A stretch of DNA of 45,079 nucleotides from assembly GCA_905178155.1 (NCBI GenBank), contig CAJINV010000003.1, positions 191,575 to 236,653 of the forward strand, read 5' to 3'. Made by a program: the position numbers and the translations under genes. This document shows, one piece after another, positions 6,083 to 45,079 of the stretch. Position 1 is the stretch's first letter. Each line of letters begins with the position of its first letter. The DNA comes from Amoebophrya sp. A120. Taxonomy: Eukaryota; Protista; Dinoflagellata. Below the pieces are notes generated by a model. That model saw only the letters and a program-made list of their open reading frames with translations. It ran no database searches and was not told the DNA's origin.

Positions 6083-7336
6083 GGCCGCTACACCTGCTGA
6101 GACATAAAGAAGCAGCACAAGCAAAAAGTTGGTGGATCATGGGACGACTGAAGATGGTGGTGGGTAAAGTGAAACAGATGCATTCAACAAATTGCTTAAA
6201 CTTGATTCTTCGCGATTTTTCCAAGCGATGTGCCTCGCCAAGGATCGGAAAGACTGGTAGGGAGCGCCTCGATATGCCAGAAAGGTGGATCATGTCGGTT
6301 GTGCTTCGTGGTCTCAAGTCGGATACTCGAGAAATCACGGAAGAAAAATGGAGAAATCCTCCTCCTGCACCTGATATTTAGTGCCTTATCTCGGCGTAGA
6401 GGCGGCAGAAAGCTTCACTATCGCTGTCATGTATGATGTTGCCATGCTCTGTCCTCGAGTACCATATTCAATTTCAATCCATATCGAATTTTTCTTTCTG
6501 GACGAGCATTTTCTGCAAAATGGTTTCCGCACATAGAGATTAGTTTCCCATGGAGCACTCCTGACGGAACTTATTGTACAAGCATCTTGCTACAACTTTA
6601 GCTTTGCTTTTCAATTTCAAGAAACAATGCGGTGCAATAATTTTCCGATATTTTTGTTCGCGCAGCTGATAGCAGTGCCACCGAAATTTAAATTTTGGTG
6701 TGTTGCTGGTATTCAGATCATTTCAGAGCTACCCGAAGTGCGACGCGGAGCGGCCAAATGGATACTCCTGCTGTCCGCACTGGTGCTCTTTATTTTCGAA
6801 GCAGCTGCGCCTGCGGCTTGCGGCAGTTCCGCAATAGGTTTGTTTCTGTGTTGATATATGCCAAGAGCTTTTCATCACTGTGACGATTGAATTACTCGCA
6901 ACATAACAAGCAAAACAAAACATGTGCAGCAAGAATTATATCCTTTCGAATTCTGGTCTGGCAAGGTATACTTGCCGGCGTTTTCGACAAAGCCTCGTAG
7001 ATTGGCGACCATGGGAGCAGCTGCCCATGCAGCTTTCTACTAAACAAGATTGAGACATTTTGCAAGTATGTTGCGAAAGATGTTATATAACTTTGATTTT
7101 TTCAACAGGAGCAAGTTGAAGATCTGTATGTTGAGGTCAAAAAGTTTAGTCTGGAATAAAAGGCACGGTAGAAGAGCCGGTATCCTTTGCTGATCTCGAA
7201 ATACAGAGATCACCGAAGTAGAAGTTGGACTTTGTGGCGGTGTTCCCATCCTTCGATATGCCATCTTTGCTCTTTTGGAAAGAGCAATGATGGCATACCG
7301 AGTCAGTGCTTAGCACTGCATTTATTTTTGATATAA

Positions 7337-9638
7337 GAGCGGGGTAACAAATTCTGACGAGTTGTGGCCGTCCCACTTCTCACCCGCCCGGCCGGGTGGG
7401 TGACTAGTGGGACGGAACCAGGATCCTGACCAGCTGGCCGGATCTGAAAGCCTCAAAAACAACGCTTTTTCTTTTCCGCACCTGATTCTGCTTCCTACCA
7501 GCCACACCCGCAGGTCTTGCAGGAGGTGGTAGAAAGAAGATTCAGCTTGTGGTAAAGAAAGTGTTGCTCCGGCTTACTGAAAGCCTCAAAAAGCACAGCT
7601 TTTTGCTTTCCGCGCCTGATTCTTCTTTCTACCAGCCACGTCTGCAGGTCTTGCAGGAGGTGGTAGAAAGAAGATTCAGCTTCTGGCAAAAAAAGCGCTG
7701 CTTTGGCTTGCTGAACGCCTCAGAAACGTCGTTTTTTGTTTTCAGCGCCTGATTCTTCTTTCTACCAGCCACGTCTGCAGGTCTTGCAGGAGGTGGTAGA
7801 AAGAAGATTCAGCTCGTGGTAAAAAAAGCGTTGCTTTGGCTTACTGAAAGTCTTAGAAACAGCGTTTTTTGTTTTCCGCGCCTGATTCTTCTTTCTACCA
7901 GCCACGCCCGCAGGTCTTGCAGGAGGTGGTAGAAAGAAGATGCAGCTCAGGGTAAAAAAAGTGTTGCTTTGGCTTACTGAAAGCCTCAAAAGCAGCACTT
8001 TTTGTTTTCCGCACCTGATTCTTCTTTGTGCCAGCCATACCCGCAGGTCTTGCAGGAGGTGGTAGAAAGACGATTCAGCTCGTGGCAGAAAAAGCGTTGC
8101 TTTGGCTTATTGAAAGCCTCAGAAATAGCGTTTTTTGTTTTCCGCGCCTGATTCTTCTTTCTACCAGCCACGCCCGCAGGTCTTGCAGGAGGTGGTAGAT
8201 AGAAAACTTAGCTCGTGGCAAAAAAAGTGCTGCTTTGGCTTACTGAAAGCCTCAGAAGCAGCGTTTTTCGTTTTCCGCGCCTGATTCTTCTTTCTACCAG
8301 CCACGTCTGCAGGTCTTGCAGGAGGTGGTAGAAAGAAGATTCAGCTCCTGGTAAAAAAAGCGTTGCTTTGGCTTGCTGAAAGCCTCAGAAGCGCCGTTTT
8401 TTGTTTTCCGCACTTGATTCTTCTTTCTACCAGCCACATCTGCAGGTCTTGCAGGAGGTGGTAGAAAGAAGATTCAGCTCGTGGTAAAAACAATGTTGCT
8501 TGGGCTTACTGAAAGCCTCAGAAACAGCATTTTTTGTTTTCCGCGCCTGATTCTTCTTTCTACCAGCCACGCCCGCAGGTCTTGCAGGAGGTCGTAGAAA
8601 GAATATTCAGCTCGTGGCAAAAAAAATGTTGCTTTGGCTTACTGAAAGCCTCAGAAGCAGCGTTTTTTGTTTTCCGCACCTGATTCTTCTTTCTACCAGC
8701 CACAACCGCAGGTCTTGCAGGAGGTGGTAGAAAGAAGATTCAGCTCGTGGCAAAAAAAGCGCTGCTTTGGCTTATTGAAAGTCTCAGAAGTAGCGTTTTT
8801 TGTTTTCCGCGCCTGATTCTTCTTTCTACCAGCCACGCCCGCAGGTCTTGCAGGAGGTGGCAGAAAGAAGACTCAGCTCGTGGCAAAAAAAGTGTTGCTT
8901 TGGCTTACTGAAAGCCTCAGAAACAGCGTTTTTTGTTTTCCGCACCTGATTCTTCTTTCTACCAGCCACGCCCGCAGATCTTGCAGGAGGTGGTAGAAAG
9001 AAGATTCAGCGCGTGGCAAAAAAAAATGTTGCTTTGGCTTACTGAAAGTCTCAGAAGCGACGTTTTTTGTTTTCCGCGCCTGATTCTTCTTTCTACCAGT
9101 CACACCCGCAGGTCTTGCGGGAGGTGGTAGAAAGAGGATTCAGCTCGTGGCAAAAAAATCGCTGCTTTGGCTTACTGAAAGCCTCAAAAGCAACGCTTTT
9201 TTTTTTCCGCGCCTCATTCTTCTTTCTACCAGCCACACCCGCAGGTCTTGCAGGAGGTGGTAGAAAGAAGATTCAGCTCGTAGTAAGAAAAATGCTGCTT
9301 TGGCTTACTGAAAGCCTCGGAAGCAGCGCTATTTGTTTTCCGCACCTGATTCTTCTTTCTACCGGCCATGCCCGCAAGTCTTGCAGGAGGTGTTAGAAAG
9401 ACGATTCCGCTCGTGGTAAAAAAGCCGTTGCTTTGGCTTAGTGAAACCCTCAAACGCAGGATTTTTTGTTTTCCGCACCTCATTCTTCTACCAGCCACAC
9501 CCGCAGGTCTTGCAGGAGGTGGTAGAATTTCCGCCGTTCTCGTGGTCAGGATCCTGGTTCCGTCCCACTAGTCACCCACCCGGCCGGGCGGGTGAGAAGT
9601 GGGACGGCCACAACTCGCCAGAATTTGTTACCCCGCTC
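7337..9638. mobile_element. Non-autonomous TIR DNA transposon, PIF/Harbinger-like
   Basis: 96-bp TIRs at 7337-7432 and 9543-9638 with one mismatch, starting GAGCGGGG. TAA flanks both sides (7334-7336, 9639-9641), matching the 3-bp TAA/TTA TSD of PIF/Harbinger. No transposase ORF; the interior is a tandem array. Confidence 0.88.
7445..9527. repeat. ~133-bp tandem array (16 core copies) inside the TIR element
   Basis: Core GCAGGTCTTGCAGGAGGTGG (or close variant) at 7510, 7644, 7777, 7910, 8043, 8176, 8309, 8442, 8575, 8708, 8841, 8974, 9108, 9241, 9374 and 9503. Confidence 0.95.
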
Positions 9639-10203
9639 TAAGTACTTACATTTTTCTCTGATTTTTCTACCTCGTTGCTGTTTTCCTTGTCTGTGTTTTC
9701 GTGTATCGATCACATTTGTTGATCTCTCCTTTCAAAATCTTTGACGCAGGCTACGATCAATTAGGTTTTGAGTAAATATATAGATATCTGGATCTGATAC
9801 GTTCCCTGGTGTTTTACTCTTATTTGAACAAAGAGGATCCTGTCATTAAGACGATGACCTCCTTCTTTACGTATGTTATGTGTAGTAAGTTGAGAGGAGG
9901 TTTTTTGGTATTTATTCCCTCGTTGATAAAGTGAACCCATTGTGCTTCTCTGATCCTGACTATGGCCACTTTATGACCACCTCCTGATCACAGAGGAAAT
10001 ACTGAAGGATTTTGCTCCTTTGCGCCCGCAAAGAACCACGACAATCATGTTGGTGTTCTTCTTGCGCGTGGTCGACAAGTGCGACGACAGCTACTTGTGA
10101 TTCAGCGGAGAGCCGCCGCGGGGGCGGATCAACATACAACGCAGTGAAGACCGCCGCCTGACTTATTTCGCAGCTTCTCACGACATAGCGCTGCCGTGTT
10201 GTA

Positions 10204-13200
10204 ATGATGGCCGGCGGCGCCGTCCAAGAAAAGAAGGCTGGCGACTCAAGAACTACACCCGGAAGAAGTAGCACGGATGATGGTAGTACGGCGCGAAGAG
10301 ATGTTGGTGACCACACGACGAAAAGCAGTAATAAAGCGCGCACCGGCGAGGATCACCACCACCTCGGTGGAACAAATAATGACCCGGAGCTGCAGCAGAG
10401 CGCCGACTACGGCTCCGCCACATCGTCCAGTGCCGTCTCAGGGGAAATACGGATGCCGAGCTACATCACGTCACAACACCGTTCGGGCGCTAGCGACACG
10501 GCGACGGAGTCCTCGAAAAACGCCGCGGAAGTCCCTCCACCACCGCCGTATCAAACAAAAAAAGTTCGTCACGATCACTCATGCGCATTTTTGCAATACA
10601 AAATTGGCTGTCATGCGTAAAAATGCATGACAGCCAAGCTTCATAGGGGATTTCCCTATTATTTCTGCAATACAAGGTAAACTTGTGATGCTAAAAAAAT
10701 TTGTAATGCAAAACCTGCAAGTTAGTGACTGTGACAAACTTTTTTCTTTCCATACGCCGGACGAGCTGTATATCAATCCGGGAGGAGGCCCATCCACTTC
10801 CACAGCGACCGGCGACGAGGCATTTGCAGCAACCGCTGGACGAGGGGGAAATAATTACTACGGCGGTAATACAATTACGACGGCTGATGTCGGTGCTGCC
10901 GCTTCTTCGGCCTTGGAAGATGATTATCAACCGAGAGGACTTGTCCCGGAGGGCGAAACTAGCAGCCTCAACAACCCGCCGCATCCCTCCTCGAGCGAGG
11001 AAAATAATGATGGCGGCGCAACGAGCACCGTGGATATCGAGCCGATTCCCATCGGCGCAGGAGGGGGAAATGCCAGTCTCAACTCCTCCCAGCATCCACC
11101 TCCGGGGGATTTGATGTCCTATTTTCCCAGCACCAGTTCCTCTAACATCACTCCGCCGCCGGGAATGGTCTCCCCGGTGAAATCGCCCGGCAAGCATATA
11201 GTGCCCAGCTTCGGCGGAGCCGGAGGCGCGAAAAAGGGTGCGCCGCTGGGCAAAAAGGGTCCCAGCGTCGACTCGGCACCGAGTAACATCCTCCGAATGC
11301 TGGGAAAAACCGCCTCTGCCGCGTCCACTAACGCGGCGAACAGTGCAGGAGGGGGCCCGCCCGGGAGCAACCCCGGTGGCGGAAAAGGGGGGTTGCCACC
11401 CGGAAACAAAGGTATTGCTACCTGTAGTTTTGTGTGTGAACGTGAAGCATGTTGCTTGCTGTTACCCAACAACTCAAAAATCTATGCAATTTGAAGTTCG
11501 TAACGTGTAACACTCTAGGTGGCGGCGGTTTCTTTGGGGGAATGGGTGTTGGGGCGCAGTCCAAGGATGAAGCAGGAGAGGACGAGAATAAAGTCGAGGA
11601 GGAAGAAGACCCACAAAAGGTCATCGAGGATCTAGAAGCAAAGGACGGCTTCGAGAAGGAAAACGACCTGGTTACATTCTTCAAATACAAGGTAATCAAT
11701 GTTATACCAGTTATACCTGGTGTCGTCCTGTTGCTGTTTCTATTGATGCAGACTCGACATGCTTCTTGTGAGTGAAAACATAGCAGCTGCATCGCAAGCA
11801 ACAAGGAACAGTACCAAAGTCAAGTAGGCCTACTTCATGAACTACGTCGAGCTCGACCTTCTTATCTTGACGCGCAAGTACATCGATTTGATTTTGTGGA
11901 GAGATCTGACCTTACGACCACGACAGGTGGCCGGCGACTACACGTACACGCACTCGTCCATAATTGGCTCCGCGGATCAGCGGATGCCCCGGACGGGGAA
12001 ACTGAACGTGACCAGGCAAGATCACATGACCAAGCTGTTCTGCGCGATCGCGTTCTTCTACCGCCAGAAGCGCCCCTTGACGCTGGTAGAAATGGCGACA
12101 ACGCGGTTCCGCTTCTACGAAGATGTGGACCTCTTCTTACCCCCGGGCTTCGTCGATACCGGCGAAGAAATCAAGGCACTAGAAAGAAGATGGATAGCGC
12201 AACTGCTGAAAATTAGAGGTACTTTGCTGAACTACATAGCAGGTCCTGCTTTTCATGTTCACCTCCGGGTTCGATTTGCAATCCATATCCAAATTTTCGT
12301 TCCAGCAGAGCGACGTAGGGTACAAATAACACGTTACCTCCTGATTGCTGCACCAGTAGAAGACATGTGTACTAGAACAAGTTCAGAGCTACCTCTACAT
12401 TCTGTACTCCAAAAATCACGAGAAATCTATCACCAGGTGCGGTGTTTGGTGCCGTGTGGCGTTCGGATGACGTGCTGGGGATCTGCCAGAATTGCTTGAA
12501 AACCACGGTGCACGTGTTTTCCTCCTCCGGTTTTTCCACGAAGTCGCAGAGCTACAAAGTTTCCCTGCATTTCGTGTGGCCCCACCTGGTTGTGACAAAG
12601 CGGGAGGCCAAGGCCATCCGCGGTGCGACAATCGAGTTTCTTCGGGAGAACACGTCCCCGGAACAGGAGGCGTTGCTCCGCATCTCCTTCCCCGACTACG
12701 TTTACAACCCGGACAGCGAACAGACACCATGGGAGGAAATTTACGACGCCGCACCAATTGAAGGCGCCAGTCTGAAGATGCCCTTCAACGACAAAGGTAT
12801 AGCTTGCTTGAGTTTCATCACTTTCAACTCCTCTCCTCAACGAGCGCATTCTTGGTAGTTTCGTCTTACAACCATGCTTGGAATAGAATCTACTTTGAAT
12901 GAGAATTATATGATGCAGATGTGAGGTTCCATCGAACTACATGTGGTAGAAAAAAATCTCCTACAGGTATAAAACCTAACCGCGACACGAAGCAGAGCGC
13001 GAAGCTGGAGAACCGGCCGAAGCTGCCGGTGGGTACGTTTCTGGTGAACTTGGTGGCCTCGCAGGTGGAGGAATCCACCATGGAACTGCTGTACGGGCCG
13101 GACGATAAGGAGGACCTGAAGTGGTTATCGGACGGAAGCATCCGGCTCGACATGGAAAATCCCCCGCCCGTGGCGAACATCTGGATTTTTGCCTCCAACA

Positions 13201-28841: not shown

Positions 28842-31267
28842 ATGGCGCTCCAGCAGTCGCAGATGAGCATGGGCAGCACGCGGCGGCCGCACCGGTCGAT
28901 GTACGTGAGTAAGTCGGACAATCTGCATATCAACTGTAAAAATGTCTGGGTCTGGAAGATTCTGACACTTGTCATGCACGTTTTGCATGAGCCATGATGT
29001 CTGTGAAGATGCATACCCTAGCAATACAGATTTTTTGAGGGCGTCTTGATGCGTATTCCGCATGACAAATGCCTTCTCAGCGTAGCAAAAATTGCATTTC
29101 CTTTGGTACTCATGCAATACAGATTTTTTTGGAATCCAAATGCAGCATCACAAGTTGCATTCTTCCAGACCCAGACACTTTTACATTTGATACTGCACCA
29201 GGTCGTCTCCCGGAACAGCGGTATGCGCGCGGACTCGGGCACTTTCGGGAAGAATCCGCGGTTTGCGGCGAAGCGACTAATGTCCCCCACCGGCGCGGAC
29301 TCACCCTGGGGAAAGGCTTTCCTCGAGCACAACCGCTTCTTCAAGGATCCGCTGGAATCACAGATTGGGTCCTGCAGTGGCAAGAAGGCCGGCTTCGGCT
29401 ACGGCAGCCGACCCACGTACGTCCGCGGCACGCCAAACCTGGGACCAGGCACCTACACACCCATCACCTCAGTCGCGAAGACCGCATCCAGTTTGGACGG
29501 AAAAAAGTAATGAAATTGTGCTTGATGGTGGTCGGTCTCGGTTTTCCTATATGAGATCTTGGTCCTCGTCGTGTGCAGTAAGCTGCAAAAATGTTGGGAC
29601 GTGCTCTTCAGTGCTGTATCTCTTATTTCTCTATACTGTGTTGATATGCTGCTGTATGCATATCGTACTGAACGACAATGCAAAAACAAAATTAATGTAT
29701 AAATTCAGGTACTGCAATGTAACTCTGAAGCAGCGAACGAAGGTGGTAGTTGGAGCGGTAAGTCCACACGAGGAGGCACGGAAGCCCGGTCCGGGCACGT
29801 ACACACTACACTCCGACATCAATGGTTTGTACGTGACACGCGGCGACAAGAAGAACTGGGTCGGACCACCAGCGTATAATTGCATCTAATTTGATGATAT
29901 CATGCGTGCCCGTGCTAAAATTCTTCATGAGCGTAGTCCCTCGTTTAAAAAAATACTTCGATTTCATTTTCGAGCTACCACGAATGTAGTCCTGTTTCAT
30001 CTCCGACTTTTTTCGTGCTTTTCAATCCAATGTGAAATCCTACAGGCCAAAAATGGGCATGGCTTTGAAGGAAGTAATCGACCTTGCTGGAGATGCTTTG
30101 TACAATGTAGCAGAAGACATGGGCACCAAGAACGTCAACAATTGGGCGGGAAAGTCTACTTTCGGCTTCGCAAAACTCGGAAGTATCTGTTTTTTTGTTT
30201 GTTGTAGTGCATCATGTTGCAATTGTTTCTGTTTTTGTTTTGTGGCGTCTGATGAAAAATCAAAGCGCGCCCCTCTTTTTTCTAGCGTTCGCTCGCGACA
30301 CGAGTATTGTCTGCATGATGATGAACGGAGCTCGTGCAGTTGAAAACGAAAAGCGATATATAAATTTTATCCTCCGCTGCATGTATGATAATGATCCCCT
30401 ATCAATTACAGACCCACACTCTTCCCAATCTCCCGACGGCGAACTTTACTACTCGCACGTAAAGTTGACGGAGGACTACACGAAAGTTGCGCGCGCCAGT
30501 GGACTCGGAAAGGGCGAGCGACCCGTCCTGAACCCCGAGCAAACCACCGCGGGCCCGGCCAGCTACTTCCCCGTGGCTTCGTGCGCAAAGACCACCAGCC
30601 CGCTGGACGGGTTCACGGTCCGCAACCTCTTATCAACTGCAAAAATGTCTGGGTCTGGAAGATTTCATGTTTGTCATGCTTGTCTGGCATGACTCTTAAA
30701 TCTGTCATGCAAGTTACCCGCCAAGAGCTTCGTTTTTCTGTGATGCACAACCGCAGTTTGTGTTTGTCATGCAGAATAGGCAACACCTAGGGCTAGGAGC
30801 TCAGAAACTTGTCATGCTGCGCCAGCATTTGTAGCCTCATCATGAGACGCCACCCAGCGTCACAAGTTTCCAGACCCAGACATTTTTACTTTTGATACCT
30901 CTCCCCGGTCACCCAGTTCGGGAAAATCAGCTCGCTGAAAATGATACCAAATGTAAAAATGTCTGGGTCTGGAAGATTCTGAGATTTGTCATGCATGTTT
31001 TGCATGACCCAGGATGTCTGTAATGCACGACCGCGCATCACAGATTTTGAGCGGGCTTCCTGATGCCTACTCCGCATGACAAACGCCCTCCCCGCGTAGC
31101 ACAAACTAGACTCCTCTTGCTGGTCATGCAATACAGATTTTCCTAGAGTCCAAAGTTAGCATCACAAGTTCCAATCTTCCAGACCCAGACATTTTTACAT
31201 TTGATAAATGAAGTCCATGACCAGCATCGCACCCTCGATGAACCGCACCATCACTCCCGGCGAGTGA
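28842..31267 (+). CDS. ODF3/SHIPPO-like PG-rich-repeat axonemal protein
   Basis: Exons 28842-28927, 29198-29506, 29709-29873, 30046-30182, 30412-30630, 30903-30944 and 31212-31267 (three GT-AG introns, three introners) give a continuous frame to TGA at 31265. Repeats LGPGTY, PGPGTY and AGPASY. Confidence 0.78.
28928..29192. mobile_element. TIR introner, family A copy 1
   Basis: ~32-bp TIR TATCAACTGTAAAAATGTCTGGGTCTGGAAGA...TCTTCCAGACCCAGACACTTTTACATTTGATA. TSD CTGCA at 28923-28927 and 29193-29197. Contains an in-frame stop. Confidence 0.92.
30631..30897. mobile_element. TIR introner, family A copy 2
   Basis: Same TIR as copy 1. TSD CCTCT at 30626-30630 and 30898-30902. Removing 272 nt gives RNLSPVTQ. 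Confidence 0.92.
30945..31206. mobile_element. TIR introner, family A copy 3
   Basis: Ends TACCAAATGTAAAAATGTCTGGGTCTGGAAG...CATTTGATA. TSD AATGA at 30940-30944 and 31207-31211. Interior is collinear with copy 1. Confidence 0.92.
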
Positions 31268-32570
31268 AGAAGATCAAGCTGCTCCGGACGTTTGGTAAAC
31301 GTGGCACATAGCCGCGCAAACGACGGAGAAGAACGCGGAAACAAAAAGACAGTTGATTTATTCTTGGCCTCAGAATTTATTGTGTTGTTGATGGATGAAG
31401 GCACGAAAGCGGTGACTACAAATTTCATCTGATATTATGCTAATTCGGAAATTATTACAATCGGACCATATACTTCTAAGCAGGTAACTAACAAATCTCA
31501 ACATTATCGAAAGAAAAGAACCCTCAGTATCGTCTTGATGTAGCTTTTCTTTGTTCGAATTCAATTTGACCATGTACATAGTTTTCTTGTTTCGTGACAA
31601 CTTTCACATGTAAATTATTTTGCGCGCCCGATGGTGGCTGTACAATAAATAAGGTAAACTCAACATTTTCAGTTCTTGTAGATCATTTGGACTTGTTAAC
31701 TTGTTTTGCCCTGTTAATAAATATTTCTGTATTTCTTCATGTACACAAACAAAAAACCGATAAGAATACGCCACTAGGATGCATCGGACTATTCTTCAAA
31801 TGCTGCGTTGATGTTGTGTTGAGTTAAGCTGTATGCACTTACCTAACGTGCAAAGCAAAGGAAGCCGCTGCAACTTGTTGTGTGTTTTGGTACTGAGCAG
31901 GGGCGGTGTGGCTGATGTCGCTTTTCATTGTCCGACGTCGAGACCTTGACCTGAGCGCAGCGTAAGGCATTTGAATTCAACATGAACACGAGCATCAGAT
32001 CACGAGCGAAGGCATACAACAGGACTAGATCTTCATGCACGCGGGAGAAATCTTAATCTCAATCTTTGACGAGAGCTGTCGCCGTGACACGCGAGAATGC
32101 AACCACCTAACATGCTGCACAGTAGAGCCTTGCAGTAGCTTCCAAGGCGCCGCGGCAGCGGCACGACGAACAAGAGCGCAGTGAGTCTGTGGAGCTCCTT
32201 TTCCGAGCAATCGAAGCGACGCTTGTTGAATACGTAGGAACAAGCTTGCGTTGGTGAGCAGCATTTCCGAAGAAACACTACAACAGGATAATTCCAACAA
32301 GTTGGTTGTAGAGCATACGCTCATCGTTACTCTTATTCGAAGACGTGAAGATTGCGACGCAGATATAGGTGGAAAGGTAAAAGCGATATATTACTACAGC
32401 CGAGCTCTCAGGCAGTTTCTCGTGTCAGCCACAACAAGATGAAGATGGCAAGAGGAGTGTGATGAAGAACTTTCTGTTGAGAGGACCACGACGGGCGACG
32501 GTGCAGCAGCGTTTACTTCTGCCATGAGTTGTAGCGAGCACGGGCGAGCACGAACAGGATTAACACTCGC

Positions 32571-35078
32571 ATGTTATGGGGGAGCAGACGTCCACTTCCA
32601 ATCGTGCGTTGCGATGGTGGCGACGGCGAGCAAGACCATCAGGCGACCCGGAGCATTAGCAAGGCGTCTGCCGTCTCGGATTTGGAACCCGAGGGTTCTC
32701 CGAGTACCGCACGAAGCACAGGGACGAGCGCGGCGTTCCGTTCGCTTCCCAACACTCCCACAGTTGGGGAAGAGCGCCCCGAGTTCCGTTCTTTTCGCAG
32801 CCAGCGAGATGAAATACACGAATATGGTGCCACGACTCCATTTTCCACTCGCGACGCCAACAATTTTTATCACCGCGAGCCGGCCGGCCAGCGTCTTGTC
32901 CCGAGTTGGGTCGAGTCGCGGAAAACTGGGGAACACCAGGCGAAGTCTTTTCTGCACAGCGAGTTTGTACGGAAGCGCTCCCTGGCGCGCTTCGCGTCCG
33001 CGAGTGAGGAAGCGGAGGTCGAGACACAAACTCTGACGGAGGCCCTGTCACGAGCGCCCAGCTTGGTAATGTTTGAATCTTCAAGTAGATGGACAAGTAC
33101 TTACTATAATGTGCCAGGCTTCGTTGTCACAGGACCGGCGCTTATACAAATAGGAAGAATCTTTCATCACTCATCTTCGAATTACAGGTTCTGGAGCCCA
33201 GTTTCGAGAGCAGTTGGCGCACCGAAGTGATGGCCGGAATCTGCTCTGGCGTGGTGCAAGTGGTGCTTTTCAACCCCTATGACCGTGTATCAAATGCAAA
33301 AGTGTCTGGGCCTGGAAGGATGCGAACTTGTGATGCGTGTTGCGGATCATACAAAAATCTGTGTTGCATGACTTGCAAAAGGTCCCCATTTCTAGCCACG
33401 CCGAGGGGGCATTTCTCATGCAGAATAGGCATCACCAAGTCCAAGACCAAGGGGCTGCCGCTGCAGAACCTGTGATGCTAGGCCCTGCATTCGAGACTCG
33501 GCGGAGCTTGAAAAACTGCATGACAAATCTCAGAATCTTCCAGACCCAGACATTTTTGCATTTGATACCGTGCCCTGTATTTGAGTGTGATTCACCAGAG
33601 AAAGTTTCTGCACCGCGAGAACTGGGGCCGCAGCTTCTCGGATTTGAACAAGGGTCTGCTGCCGAACTTGCTGCAGCGCGTCATCAGCTACGGCATGTAT
33701 TTTCCGCTCGAACAAATGTGGACCCGGGTACTGCTGAACTGCTTTCGCAGCAGGACAACTACTGGCGGCGCTTTTGTTAATGTCGGTGAAGATCCGGCTG
33801 CCAGTTCTTCCTCCTCGTCCGCTGGAAGTAGCCGTATGAGTACTGATGGCGGTGCATCTACTTGTTCTACTGCAGATAATCGTGATGTGGGTAGTTTTTT
33901 CCCGGGTAAGCAGGAGATCCTGTACGTGGCTCCGCTCGCGGGGCAGCTCACTGGCGCCAGTAGCGGGCTGGCGACAAACTACCTGAGCTTGGTGAAATAC
34001 CGCCAGTACCAGCGGGACACACACAAGCCGCTCATCCACGATGTGCGCAAAATCTTCCACAAAGAAGGCCGCCGTAAGCAAAATGTTATTTGTTCACGAC
34101 TATGCTTTTGTCGTGAATGATGTTCTCGTGAAAGTGTAACTAGTGAATTTTGGTTTTGTTGCTATCAAACATAGAAAAAATCGAAATGCGAGAAGATCAT
34201 TAGAGGTACGTGCATGCAAAAGAAAGAAAAATTAAACAATAAAAACCGAAACAGTAACGCGCGGTCTGGGAGCTACGATCTGCCGGGATTCCGTGTTTGG
34301 GAGTGTTTTCACCTCCCTGCGAGTGTTGCTCCAGGACGAGGAACGTCAGTACCTTGTGAACTTTTTCGCCGCGTCTCTGGCAACGGTGCTGTCCGGTCCC
34401 CTGAACTACGCCCGCAACCTGCAGTACGCCTATCGTAGCGGGTGGAGTAGCTCGGAGACGGAACGGCCGATGCGATCCGAATCATCCACTAGTAGTCAAA
34501 GCAGGCCCGCCTCCGCGACGAACGAAAACAGCACGAAATTTCAGCGCGGACGGGTGCTGGAGGACTATCCGACGGTGCGGCGCGTCTTGCGAGAGCTCCA
34601 CCGCGATCTGGTGTACGGGGGTCTGGCCGGGTATGGGAGTGTCAGGATTGAAAACGACAATGTTGAAATAACTTGTAATGCATAAAATCGATACCAGTTG
34701 TGTTGGAAGCCCAATTGCCGAGCGGCGCATATCAAATTTCGGCACCGTCTAAATCCTGTTTGTCATGCTGCTTAGGGACAGAAGGCGTCCTTTGTCATGC
34801 TACTTTAGTAGCTGCATTGCAGACCCCAAACAGGCTGACAGTCGGCGCCATTTGCCATCCCTGCAAGAGAGGCATTTCATGCCTTGCAATCTATGCATGA
34901 GAAATTATTTCAACTCTGACGATTTCAATCCTGACGCTTCCATACCGGGTGGCGAAACGTGGGAATGAAGTTGCGAATCGGATGGGGCACCCTGCGCGTC
35001 GGAGTTGGCATGGCCACCGGGAATTTCTTTTACCGCTACTTCGAAAACCTCCTGAACACCACCACGCTGTCCTTTTGA
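32571..35078 (+). CDS. Mitochondrial carrier family (SLC25-like) protein with an N-terminal extension
   Basis: Exons 32571-33065 (start uncertain), 33188-33287, 33573-34073, 34255-34631 and 34950-35078. Spliced motifs FNPYDRALYLS, LTRGLGATICRD, SGPLNYARN and LRIGWGTLRVGVGMA. Confidence 0.82.
33288..33567. mobile_element. TIR introner, family A copy 4 (inverted relative to copies 1 and 3)
   Basis: Same TIR. TSD CCGTG at 33283-33287 and 33568-33572. Its 3' subterminal CATGACAAATCTCAGAATC is the reverse complement of the 5' subterminus of copy 3. It splits NPYDR|ALY. Confidence 0.92.
34632..34944. mobile_element. TIR introner, distinct family
   Basis: TIR TATGGGAGTGTCAGGATTGAAA / TTTCAATCCTGACGCTTCCATA. 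TSD CCGGG at 34627-34631 and 34945-34949. Removal restores GLAG|WRNVGMKLRIGWG. Confidence 0.9.
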
Positions 35079-39881: not shown

Positions 39882-41161
39882 CTTGACGTTTCACTTTCAG
39901 CGACAAAACATCCCTGCAAAAAGAGCTTTTTTGACTAATTCTTGAAGCATTTTTGAAGAAAGCACTTTTTGAAAAACAGAGCAGCTACGCCCACTGTAGA
40001 GGGTGCTCGAGGTGCGCCGGGTGCCGCATTGCAGTCAGAGCTACGACGCTACTCTGCGTGTAGCCTGATGCGGCTGTGTGATGCATCGCGTGCGCAGATT
40101 TGCGCGTCGTCGGCGACAGACCTGCGATGCAAAATTACGCTGCCTCGTTCTGCGCTTGAGCCAGCTTCTGAAAGCAGGCCACTTTGATGGCAGGCGATCC
40201 TGAGCCCCTCGCCAATAGTAGCGAACGTGCAGCGAACACGCCTTCGCGCAATTCGCCAGCCCGTGCAGCCAGTCGGCAGTTTTTGAGCAAGATCGACGGC
40301 TGTTGAAGGCAGCCAGCCACTTTTGAACGCGGTCAAAATACTTTGACGGCAGTCAAGATATTTTGACAGCAATCAAGCAATTTGTGAAGGCAATCAAGCA
40401 ATTTGTGAAGGCAATCAAGCAATTTGTGAAGGCAATCAGGGAATTCTTGAAGAGAGTCAAAAACAAGTCAAGTTTTGCGTCCCCTAATGCTACGGTCAAT
40501 TTTGACTTGCATTTGACTGCTTTTTGACGTTCTTCAAGAATTTCCTGACTTTTTTTTGACCTGTCGGGATCTCGCTTCACGTTTCGGCGTCCTCAAGATT
40601 CACCTGCAGCCAATTGACGCTGCCTCGCTCGTCTCTTTTCGGCTTCTGGCGACCACTTCGCGCAAAGGCTCCGGGGTGCGCGGCCCTTCGGGCCGCCACG
40701 AGTGTTTCTGTAGTTGCATCCACAGGACTGCAAGTCCCTCTCTTTTTGTGGGAAGTGTGGATGAGCTCACTCTTTACCACCGGGGGCCATCGTTTTTGTT
40801 AGCCGGCCGCCCATCCAAGGCTTATGTGCAAGCTACATCCTGCTTGCCGTTGGCAGTGCCGTCTTTGGCGCCTGTCGCGTTTTTGTCGCGTGCCACCACC
40901 CTAACAAAGCGCGACGCGGGAAACGAAGAAATATCTGCACACCGAGAAGCTGCGCGCGCTTTGTGTGCCATCGCGCCCCTGTTTTGGTTGTCGGGAAGCA
41001 TGGGGAAAAAGCTCGGGAGGTTGCTACGTGTAGGCAGCCCATTTTCAAAATGGCTCTTCTTCACAAATTCGTCAAAAATGCTTCACAAATTGAATTACAC
41101 CCCGGCACGGTTGACGTTAACTTGACGTTTCACCTTCAGCGACAAAACATTCCTGCAAAAA
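39882..41161. repeat. Composite repeat / possible foldback-like element bounded by 41-bp direct repeats
   Basis: CTTGACGTTTCACYTTCAGCGACAAAACATYCCTGCAAAAA at 39882-39922 and 41121-41161 (2 mismatches). 14-bp inverted pair at 39943-39956 and 41072-41085. Internal hairpin at ~40437-40546. Confidence 0.65.
40369..40452. repeat. 21-bp minisatellite
   Basis: GCAATCAAGCAATTTGTGAAG at 40369, 40390 and 40411, plus a degenerate fourth copy. Confidence 0.9.
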
Positions 41162-44283: not shown

Positions 44284-45079
44284 CAGTATAGCATCGTGGT
44301 GCCCAAAACTTGGAATTGCCTCTCGCTGGTCCCGGTACAGGTTTTGGGGCAGTATAGCATCGTGGTAACCAAAATCTGGAATTGCCTCTCGCCGGGCCGC
44401 GGCAGAGGCTTTGGGGCAGTACAGCATCGTGGTAAACCAAAATCTGGAATTTCCTCTCGCCGGGCTGCGGCAGAGGCTTTGGGGCAGTATAGCATCGTGG
44501 TAACCAAAATCTAGAATTTCTTCTCGCCATGCCCCGGCACAAGCTTTGGGGCAGTGTAGCATCGGGTTGGCCAAAATTTGGAATTGGCTCTCGACGGGCC
44601 CCAGCAGAGGTTTTCGGGCACTATAGCATCGTGGTAATCAAAATCTAGAATTTCTTCTCGCTGGGCTGCGGCAGAGGCTTTGGGGCAGTCTAGCATCGTG
44701 GTAACCAAAATCTAAATCTAGAATTTTTTCTCGCCATGCTCCGGCACAACAGGCTTTTGGGCAGTATAGCATCGGGGTGGCTAAACCTAAAGTCTAGAAT
44801 GGCCTCTCGCCGGGCCCCGGCAGAGGTTTTGGGGCACTATAGCATCGTGGCAACCAAAATCTAGAATTTCCTCTCGCCGGGCTGCGGCAGAGGCTTTGGG
44901 GCAGTATAGCATTGTGGTAACCAAAATCTAGAATTTCTTCTCGCCATGCCCCGGCACACGCCTTGGGGCAGTATAGGATCGGGGTGGCTAAAGTCTGGAA
45001 TGGCCTCTCGCCGGGCCCCGGCAGAGGTTTTGGGGCACTATAGCATCGTGGTAACCAAAATCTGGAATTTTCTCTCGCC
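44284..45079. repeat. ~67-bp tandem satellite (~12 copies, truncated by the window end)
   Basis: AGCATC-type anchor at 44290, 44356, 44423, 44491, 44558, 44625, 44692, 44768, 44841, 44908, 44975 and 45042. Confidence 0.94.

Follow-up and report, generated by a model that had tools for sequence, protein, structure and literature searches.

The introner elements of Amoebophrya, described since Farhat et al. 2021 (PMC7789003), are repeated introns without GT-AG boundaries that carry inverted ends and direct repeats of 3–5 bases. In Polarella glacialis and Aureococcus, introners with terminal inverted repeats (TIRs) and target-site duplications (TSDs) occur in either orientation, all classes being orientation-biased (Roy et al., 10.1101/2020.10.14.339549), while non-canonical introners are known from Fritillaria borealis (PMC11282704) and nonconventional introns from euglenids (PMC12501133). 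Further literature used for comparison comprised PMC9860276, PMC12005148, PMC12787238, PMC12621601 and PMC12130899, the last of which applies a candidate filter that retains 5'-to-5' matches. Here, we analysed a stretch of 45,079 nucleotides from Amoebophrya sp. A120 (contig CAJINV010000003.1, positions 191,575 to 236,653 of the forward strand; the whole stretch is called the window and numbered from its first letter), in which four copies of one repeated element, family A, and one element of a second family, B1, interrupt two genes on the + strand.

These elements are Amoebophrya introner elements. They share with those of PMC7789003 their repetition, inverted ends, direct repeats, GT-AG-free removal and a size of ~240 bases; the TIR consensus of family A fits the end motif reported for A120 (TAT-N7-AAA, that is, TAT, seven looser bases and at least three A), and the closest homologue of a host protein was from Amoebophrya A25. 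The reported TIRs measure 8–20 bases, compared to 30–34 bases here. As in Polarella and Aureococcus, TIR/TSD transposons make introns either way round, but the G[TCA]..AG sites supplied there by the element or the TSD, the constrained target and the orientation bias were not shown by family A. The introners of Fritillaria borealis resemble family A in stemming from MITEs (miniature inverted-repeat transposable elements) and in having non-canonical ends within the TIRs; theirs are removed by the U2 spliceosome (10.1101/2025.08.15.670264) and have fixed AG..AC/AT ends (PMC11282704), whereas the window elements had no fixed end pair. The euglenid introns (PMC12501133) are similar in having ends that can pair, direct repeats within which the joint may slide, cut sites set at fixed spacers from the paired region and a proposed MITE origin; their CAG/CTG motif and purine exon start are missing from family A, which is, by contrast, recent and high-copy with long TIRs. 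We found no statement on the orientation, target freedom or neighbour pairing of Amoebophrya elements in the literature covered, which largely excluded subscription journals, and figures S19–S25 of PMC7789003 may bear on orientation; within that coverage, we met no published account of unbiased orientation, free TSD sequence or an offset fixed at 5 bases.

The elements of the window, and the exon enclosed by two of them, are as follows.

28928..29192, + strand: A1, family A, taken as the reference for orientation, 265 bases with a 32-base TIR; TSD at 28923-28927 and 29193-29197
30631..30897, - strand: A2, family A, diverged subfamily, 267 bases; TSD at 30626-30630 and 30898-30902
30898..30939, + strand: exon between A2 and A3, 42 bases, flanked by back-to-back TIRs, with borders that slide in the TSDs; kept in contigs
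30945..31206, + strand: A3, family A, 262 bases, in the orientation of A1; TSD at 30940-30944 and 31207-31211
33288..33567, - strand: A4, family A, 280 bases, inverted relative to A1 and A3; TSD at 33283-33287 and 33568-33572
34632..34944, no strand assigned: B1, second family, 313 bases, longer TIR, TAT...ATA ends like family A; TSD at 34627-34631 and 34945-34949

The four family A copies (n = 4; each ~265 bases) had TIRs of 30–34 bases starting with TA(T/C)CAA, and a perfect 5-base TSD flanked both borders of all five elements, its sequence differing among the four family A sites. Stops were present in all six frames of every element. Being short and non-coding, with TIRs, a TSD of fixed length and many copies, family A has the features of a MITE, and the elements are likely non-autonomous DNA transposons. 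No exact TIR match was present in viral contigs. Rfam matches at 30866-30976 were to plant microRNA hairpin models far under the cut-off and were rejected as an artefact of the back-to-back TIRs.

Alignment of the four copies in both directions established their orientation. A1 and A3 aligned forward (global score 285, compared to 64 in reverse), and A4 aligned to A1 and A3 in reverse (174 and 193, compared to 11 and 39 forward). After removal of 40 bases from each end, the interior of A4 aligned locally to A1 and A3 at scores of 66 and 75 in reverse and of 20 and 21 forward, the best of 200 shuffles reaching 23 and 25; since this interior aligned solely in reverse, the orientation of A4 is independent of the TIRs. 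The family A interior is not palindromic (self-reverse scores of 18–26). A2 was diverged and leaned to the direction of A4 (73 forward, 17 reverse), and its interior was ambiguous relative to A3 (32 vs. 33). A preliminary description of this DNA had called the copies at 28928 and 30945 collinear and the copy at 33288 their reverse complement, and had placed all three in coding sequence on the sense strand; the alignments bear out the former, and the + frames, the + strand GT-AG introns and homology to A25 the latter.

The host genes and their ordinary introns are listed below.

28842..31267, + strand: host gene 1, 337 codons when spliced, containing A1, A2, A3 and three GT-AG introns
29507..29708, + strand: GT-AG intron, which serves as an internal check on strand and on the RNA being spliced
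29874..30045, + strand: GT-AG intron, joint in contigs
30183..30411, + strand: GT-AG intron, joint in contigs
32571..35078, + strand: host gene 2, resembling mitochondrial carriers, with an uncertain start codon, containing A4, B1 and two GT-AG introns
33066..33187, + strand: GT-AG intron, spliced in the contig that also carries the A4 joint, which follows 95 bases downstream
34074..34254, + strand: GT-AG intron, joint in contigs

Removal was examined in assembled contigs of four runs (X1–X4), which were classed as RNA by guess and represent at most two samples of one study. Precise joints were found for all five elements in all four of these likely-RNA runs, including the inverted A4, and the skipped lengths (A1, 270; A2, 272; A3, 267; A4, 285; B1, 318 bases) each equalled the element plus exactly one TSD (for example, 28922>29193 at A1 and 33281>33567 at A4). 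A single unbranched contig per gene carried all joints in X1–X3; gene 2 was thin and fragmented in X4, where the A4 joint rested on one contig at a depth of 3.7. The contigs with element joints also lacked the five GT-AG introns, all on the + strand, and thus represent spliced transcripts whose strand is fixed as +. Because the joint slides within the TSD, the cut site is ambiguous over 6–7 positions per element; at none of these did GT/GC..AG frame any of the five window elements, nor did these elements offer an AG..AC or AG..AT register, and G[TCA]..AG sites were found in 0 of 5. Taken with the target and interior data below, family A is very probably a transposon-derived intron that is removed from RNA in both orientations via signals common to its two ends. 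Neither X9 nor X10 gave raw reads that covered the two host genes. Separately, ~140 raw RNA reads of run X9 at 31156-31206 had the TIR end between foreign sequences, as expected of a copy of another locus that stays in RNA.

The two genes themselves required such removal. Once each element was taken out with one TSD, + frames ran for 350 and 545 codons without a stop. Gene 2 matched an Amoebophrya sp. A25 protein (49% [49–50%], E-value 9e-121) in an alignment that runs ungapped through the A4 joint and has a one-residue gap a few codons ahead of the B1 joint; its match to Pfam Mito_carr (E-value 5e-4) was under the family cut-off. Three single exons of gene 1 gave no match when searched against Pfam. 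Gene 1 encodes PGPG.Y-type repeats, which we take to be like SHIPPO/ODF3 repeats.

Two other origins of the joints were weighed against these data. All joint evidence came from contigs derived from complementary DNA, and direct repeats combined with strong structure are a known artefact signature (PMC4176328), so that reverse transcriptase could have jumped across a hairpin between the repeats while the element was bypassed otherwise, or retained, in the cell. We consider this very unlikely: one unbranched contig per gene carried all joints in X1–X3, stops occurred in all three sense frames of each of the five elements, the conserved proteins demand exact removal, and RNA at equilibrium would not present the own stems of A2 and A3 (see below). 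It is scarcely credible that the elements were instead excised precisely from DNA in some cells or life stages and the transcripts read from empty alleles, even with elements that are transposon-like and with X5, a DNA-like run, coming from a different sample than the RNA runs. In contigs of X5, which drop rare variants, every flank led on into its element, with depth even at 41–46, and the A1 joint was absent; no copy number was derived from the summed depth at the TIRs, which was thousands of times that of the flanks. Cut-and-paste excision, moreover, rarely takes exactly one TSD.

Further copies of family A were collected as genomic sequence from one other public assembly, which held at least 151 loci and at least 137 distinct complete copies; every count from this assembly refers to the matches listed, of which none shared flanks with the window. 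The median copy length was 262 bases, and 115 of 137 listed copies had a perfect 5-base TSD and 13 of 137 a TSD with one mismatch. After exclusion of 14 copies with at least two TSD mismatches or flanks under 60 bases, 123 remained (84 of the main subfamily, 30 A2-like and 9 assigned to neither). In 102 of these 123, the coding score was better when the TSD was removed in silico together with the element than when the element was removed by itself, and the best frame was then stop-free in 110, compared to 89 after removal of the element alone. An inverted copy interrupted RPB1 (Pfam E-value 8e-39) between GEMVGTIA and AQSVGEPATQMTLNTF of a conserved motif, and removal of element plus TSD restored this motif exactly. 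The RPB1 loci L074 and L075 carry family A copies, that at L075 1191-2162 being enlarged to 972 bases by 710 extra bases bounded by 19-base direct repeats, with intact ends; no long frame was found within this one 972-base copy, the sole place examined for an autonomous element or transposase.

Host strand in the other assembly was called from codon use, with training frames assumed to be +. At the margin applied, the caller was right for all 41 of the held-out pieces, and it was concordant for 10 of 10 same-contig pairs, but on the window elements it erred in 2 of 5 cases with 90-base flanks (margins 4.8 and 2.4) and in 3 of 5 with 60-base flanks; the strict count was therefore limited to margins of at least 6. 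By this count, 25 listed copies lay in one orientation relative to the inferred host strand and 24 in the other (25:24 of 49; 95% interval 36–66%), and a looser call gave 40:34. Four of seven adjacent pairs of the same subfamily were opposed. The tabulation of orientation that the preliminary description proposed thus showed no bias, in the listed copies of one other assembly rather than in the genome of the window itself.

The signals that removal might use were examined in 101 copies placed in transcript direction (97 listed loci and the four window copies). The TSD consensus carried no signal (≤0.11 bit per position), purines occupied flank positions +1 to +6 in 51–59 of 101, G[TCA]..AG was possible at some register in 15 of 101, and the mismatches of ten imperfect TSDs fell on all five positions, which left the cut register unfixed. 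Since the element takes five arbitrary bases with it, at least one cut must be set by distance from the TIR and not by a dinucleotide; and since removal proceeds both ways and is indifferent to interior and target, the information must sit in the symmetric ends.

The branch point and pyrimidine tract of an intron normally lie within its last ~50 bases. In the four window copies, the last 30 bases were identical at 27–29 of 30 positions in either direction and ended in a U-rich run, the last 22 bases of the elements being 59–68% pyrimidine. A GCAT[CG]ACAA motif, with its A ~36–46 bases from the 3' end, occurred in 47 of 50 copies facing one way and in 42 of 43 facing the other, together 89 of 93 oriented copies, compared to 278 of 3688 background windows. 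B1 contains the internal motif of family A, leaves by the identical element-plus-five rule and carries in its TIR a perfect YNYTRAY that lies 11 bases from the end whichever way the element is read. As the terminal ~45 bases read alike both ways, a branch point and pyrimidine run may be presented in either direction; the preliminary description's exclusion of a strand-specific branch point or polypyrimidine tract therefore does not follow. The contrast with ordinary introns is weak in any case, because the GT-AG introns of the host genes have little pyrimidine tract (27–68% pyrimidine near the 3' end, weak or absent, with two introns A-rich before AG) and matched strict YNYTRAY in 0 of 5.

The TIRs can form a stem, and isolated copies were predicted to fold their own stem in both directions (mean pair probability 0.82–1.00). 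When A2 and A3 were folded jointly, however, a partner swap was predicted (0.98 and 0.95) that was better by 11.8 kcal/mol, and a swap was likewise predicted in 5 of 8 other listed close pairs. The predicted cross-pairing of A2 and A3 would hide the 42-base exon, yet this exon was kept in all four runs. As A2 and A3 are removed separately despite the predicted cross-pairing, the equilibrium hairpin is not the rule, and either stems are captured co-transcriptionally or recognition is directional.

We propose the following sequence of events, to which, taken as a whole, we assign a probability of roughly 0.5. A transposase acting in trans would insert the non-autonomous element into targets of arbitrary sequence, the cut being staggered by 5 bases. 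Because transposon ends are mirror images, the transcript would show the same terminal ~45 bases in either orientation: a TAT start, a TGAC/TCAC candidate branch site, a U-rich run and an ATA end. The arms of each element would pair as the RNA is made, and a modified spliceosome, presumably with U2/U6 catalysis, would cut at a fixed offset from the element ends. Amoebophrya retains 83 of 89 spliceosomal proteins together with U2, U4 and U6 (PMC7789003), and the TIR introners of Fritillaria with non-canonical ends require the U2 spliceosome (10.1101/2025.08.15.670264).

Several observations weigh against this sequence. U1 was not found in Amoebophrya A25 or A120, and the authors of that survey expect distinct machinery (PMC7789003). 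A wobble test for selection at the RNA level was negative in the listed copies (70 G-U vs. 77 A-C mirror pairs, P = 0.62), and arms of the same copy matched barely better than shuffled partners (27.0 vs. 26.8 of 30, a value reached by 6% of shuffles), so a role of the stem in RNA is not proven. Strict YNYTRAY was found in 1 of 101 copies, and the end motif also recurs inside elements and may merely be a transposase site. Contigs cannot show a lariat, a branch point or the cut register; the RNA runs are RNA by guess, from two samples of one study; and in the other assembly host strand is inferred from codons for copies known as genomic sequence.

Removal might instead follow a non-spliceosomal path like that of Euglena, as the preliminary description implied when it named the TIR stem as the symmetric information: an endonuclease reading structure, with a ligase, would measure from the base of the stem with a total offset of five bases, perhaps releasing a circle. 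The lack of a dinucleotide rule, the fixed offset, the stems predicted both ways and the undetected U1 (PMC7789003) fit this path, and nonconventional introns of Euglena are spaced from paired motifs by fixed distances of 3 and 5 bases (PMC12501133). In contrast, a wobble or covariation signal was absent, the CAG/CTG and purine rules of Euglena do not apply here, and inverted repeats were counted in just 11% and 30% of Amoebophrya non-canonical introns in a first count (PMC7789003). Equilibrium folding also mispairs A2/A3 and 5 of 8 other listed close pairs, so that a stem rule would need co-transcriptional capture. We regard this path as possible but not probable; of the earlier proposal, symmetry of the end signals is supported, while use of the stem is not, given the negative pairing tests and the misprediction at A2/A3.

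It is also conceivable, though improbable, that a relaxed spliceosome reads linear signals at the ends and that the stem, a by-product of the conservation of transposase sites, plays no role. The negative pairing tests would be expected in that case, as would the correct removal of A2 and A3 when cross-pairing is favoured by 11.8 kcal/mol and the perfect YNYTRAY 11 bases from either end of B1. At TIR position 4 the 5' and 3' arms differ weakly, with G in excess at the 3' arm (27:11, P = 0.003); this difference points the same way, but it was noticed post hoc at one of 34 positions and fell to 15:9 (P = 0.31) in the strict subset of listed copies, which makes it a lead only; a stem of ~30 pairs would, moreover, bury linear signals. 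TATGG/TATGC ends (TIR positions 4–5) were ~2x commoner at the 3' arm (31 vs. 15 of 101, including listed copies), a post hoc observation that was not significant in the strict subset.

Several other repeats lie elsewhere in the window. The segment at 10549-10754 is likely a third family (TAT...ATA ends, an imperfect TIR of ~30 bases and a 5-base duplication), and the + frame stays open when element and duplication are removed in silico, as judged from sequence only. A 2.3-kb element at 7336-9639 has 97-base TIRs that are 99% identical and TAA-like flanks, and its interior consists of ~16 tandem 133-base units, with the stretch at 8991-9034 inverted. Tandem arrays were seen at 1-249 (81-base units), 40361-40465 (21-base) and 44284-45079 (67-base), and a 46-base direct repeat occurs at 39882 and 41121 with inverted repeats in between.

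Since 2021 it has been an open question by what means Amoebophrya takes out its tens of thousands of introns that lack GT-AG ends. The intron class and introners in both orientations are already in print, and the gain here is a set of sharper constraints on that question rather than a new system. Family A narrows it, in that target sequence and element direction are irrelevant and the removed length is the element plus exactly five bases, whereas equilibrium hairpin pairing fails to predict the outcome for close neighbours, A2 and A3 forming a natural competition. A system distinct from the spliceosome and free of splice sites, which would read paired transposon ends co-transcriptionally and, like a ruler, remove the element plus five arbitrary bases, undoing the transposase stagger in RNA, is a tentative and rather unlikely extension of these data. 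If it were true, any insertion of the class would be silent at any sequence and in either orientation, and the system would offer a programmable tool for scarless RNA excision. The indifference of removal to target and direction seen in family A also explains how such elements may flood genes, RPB1 included, at little cost.

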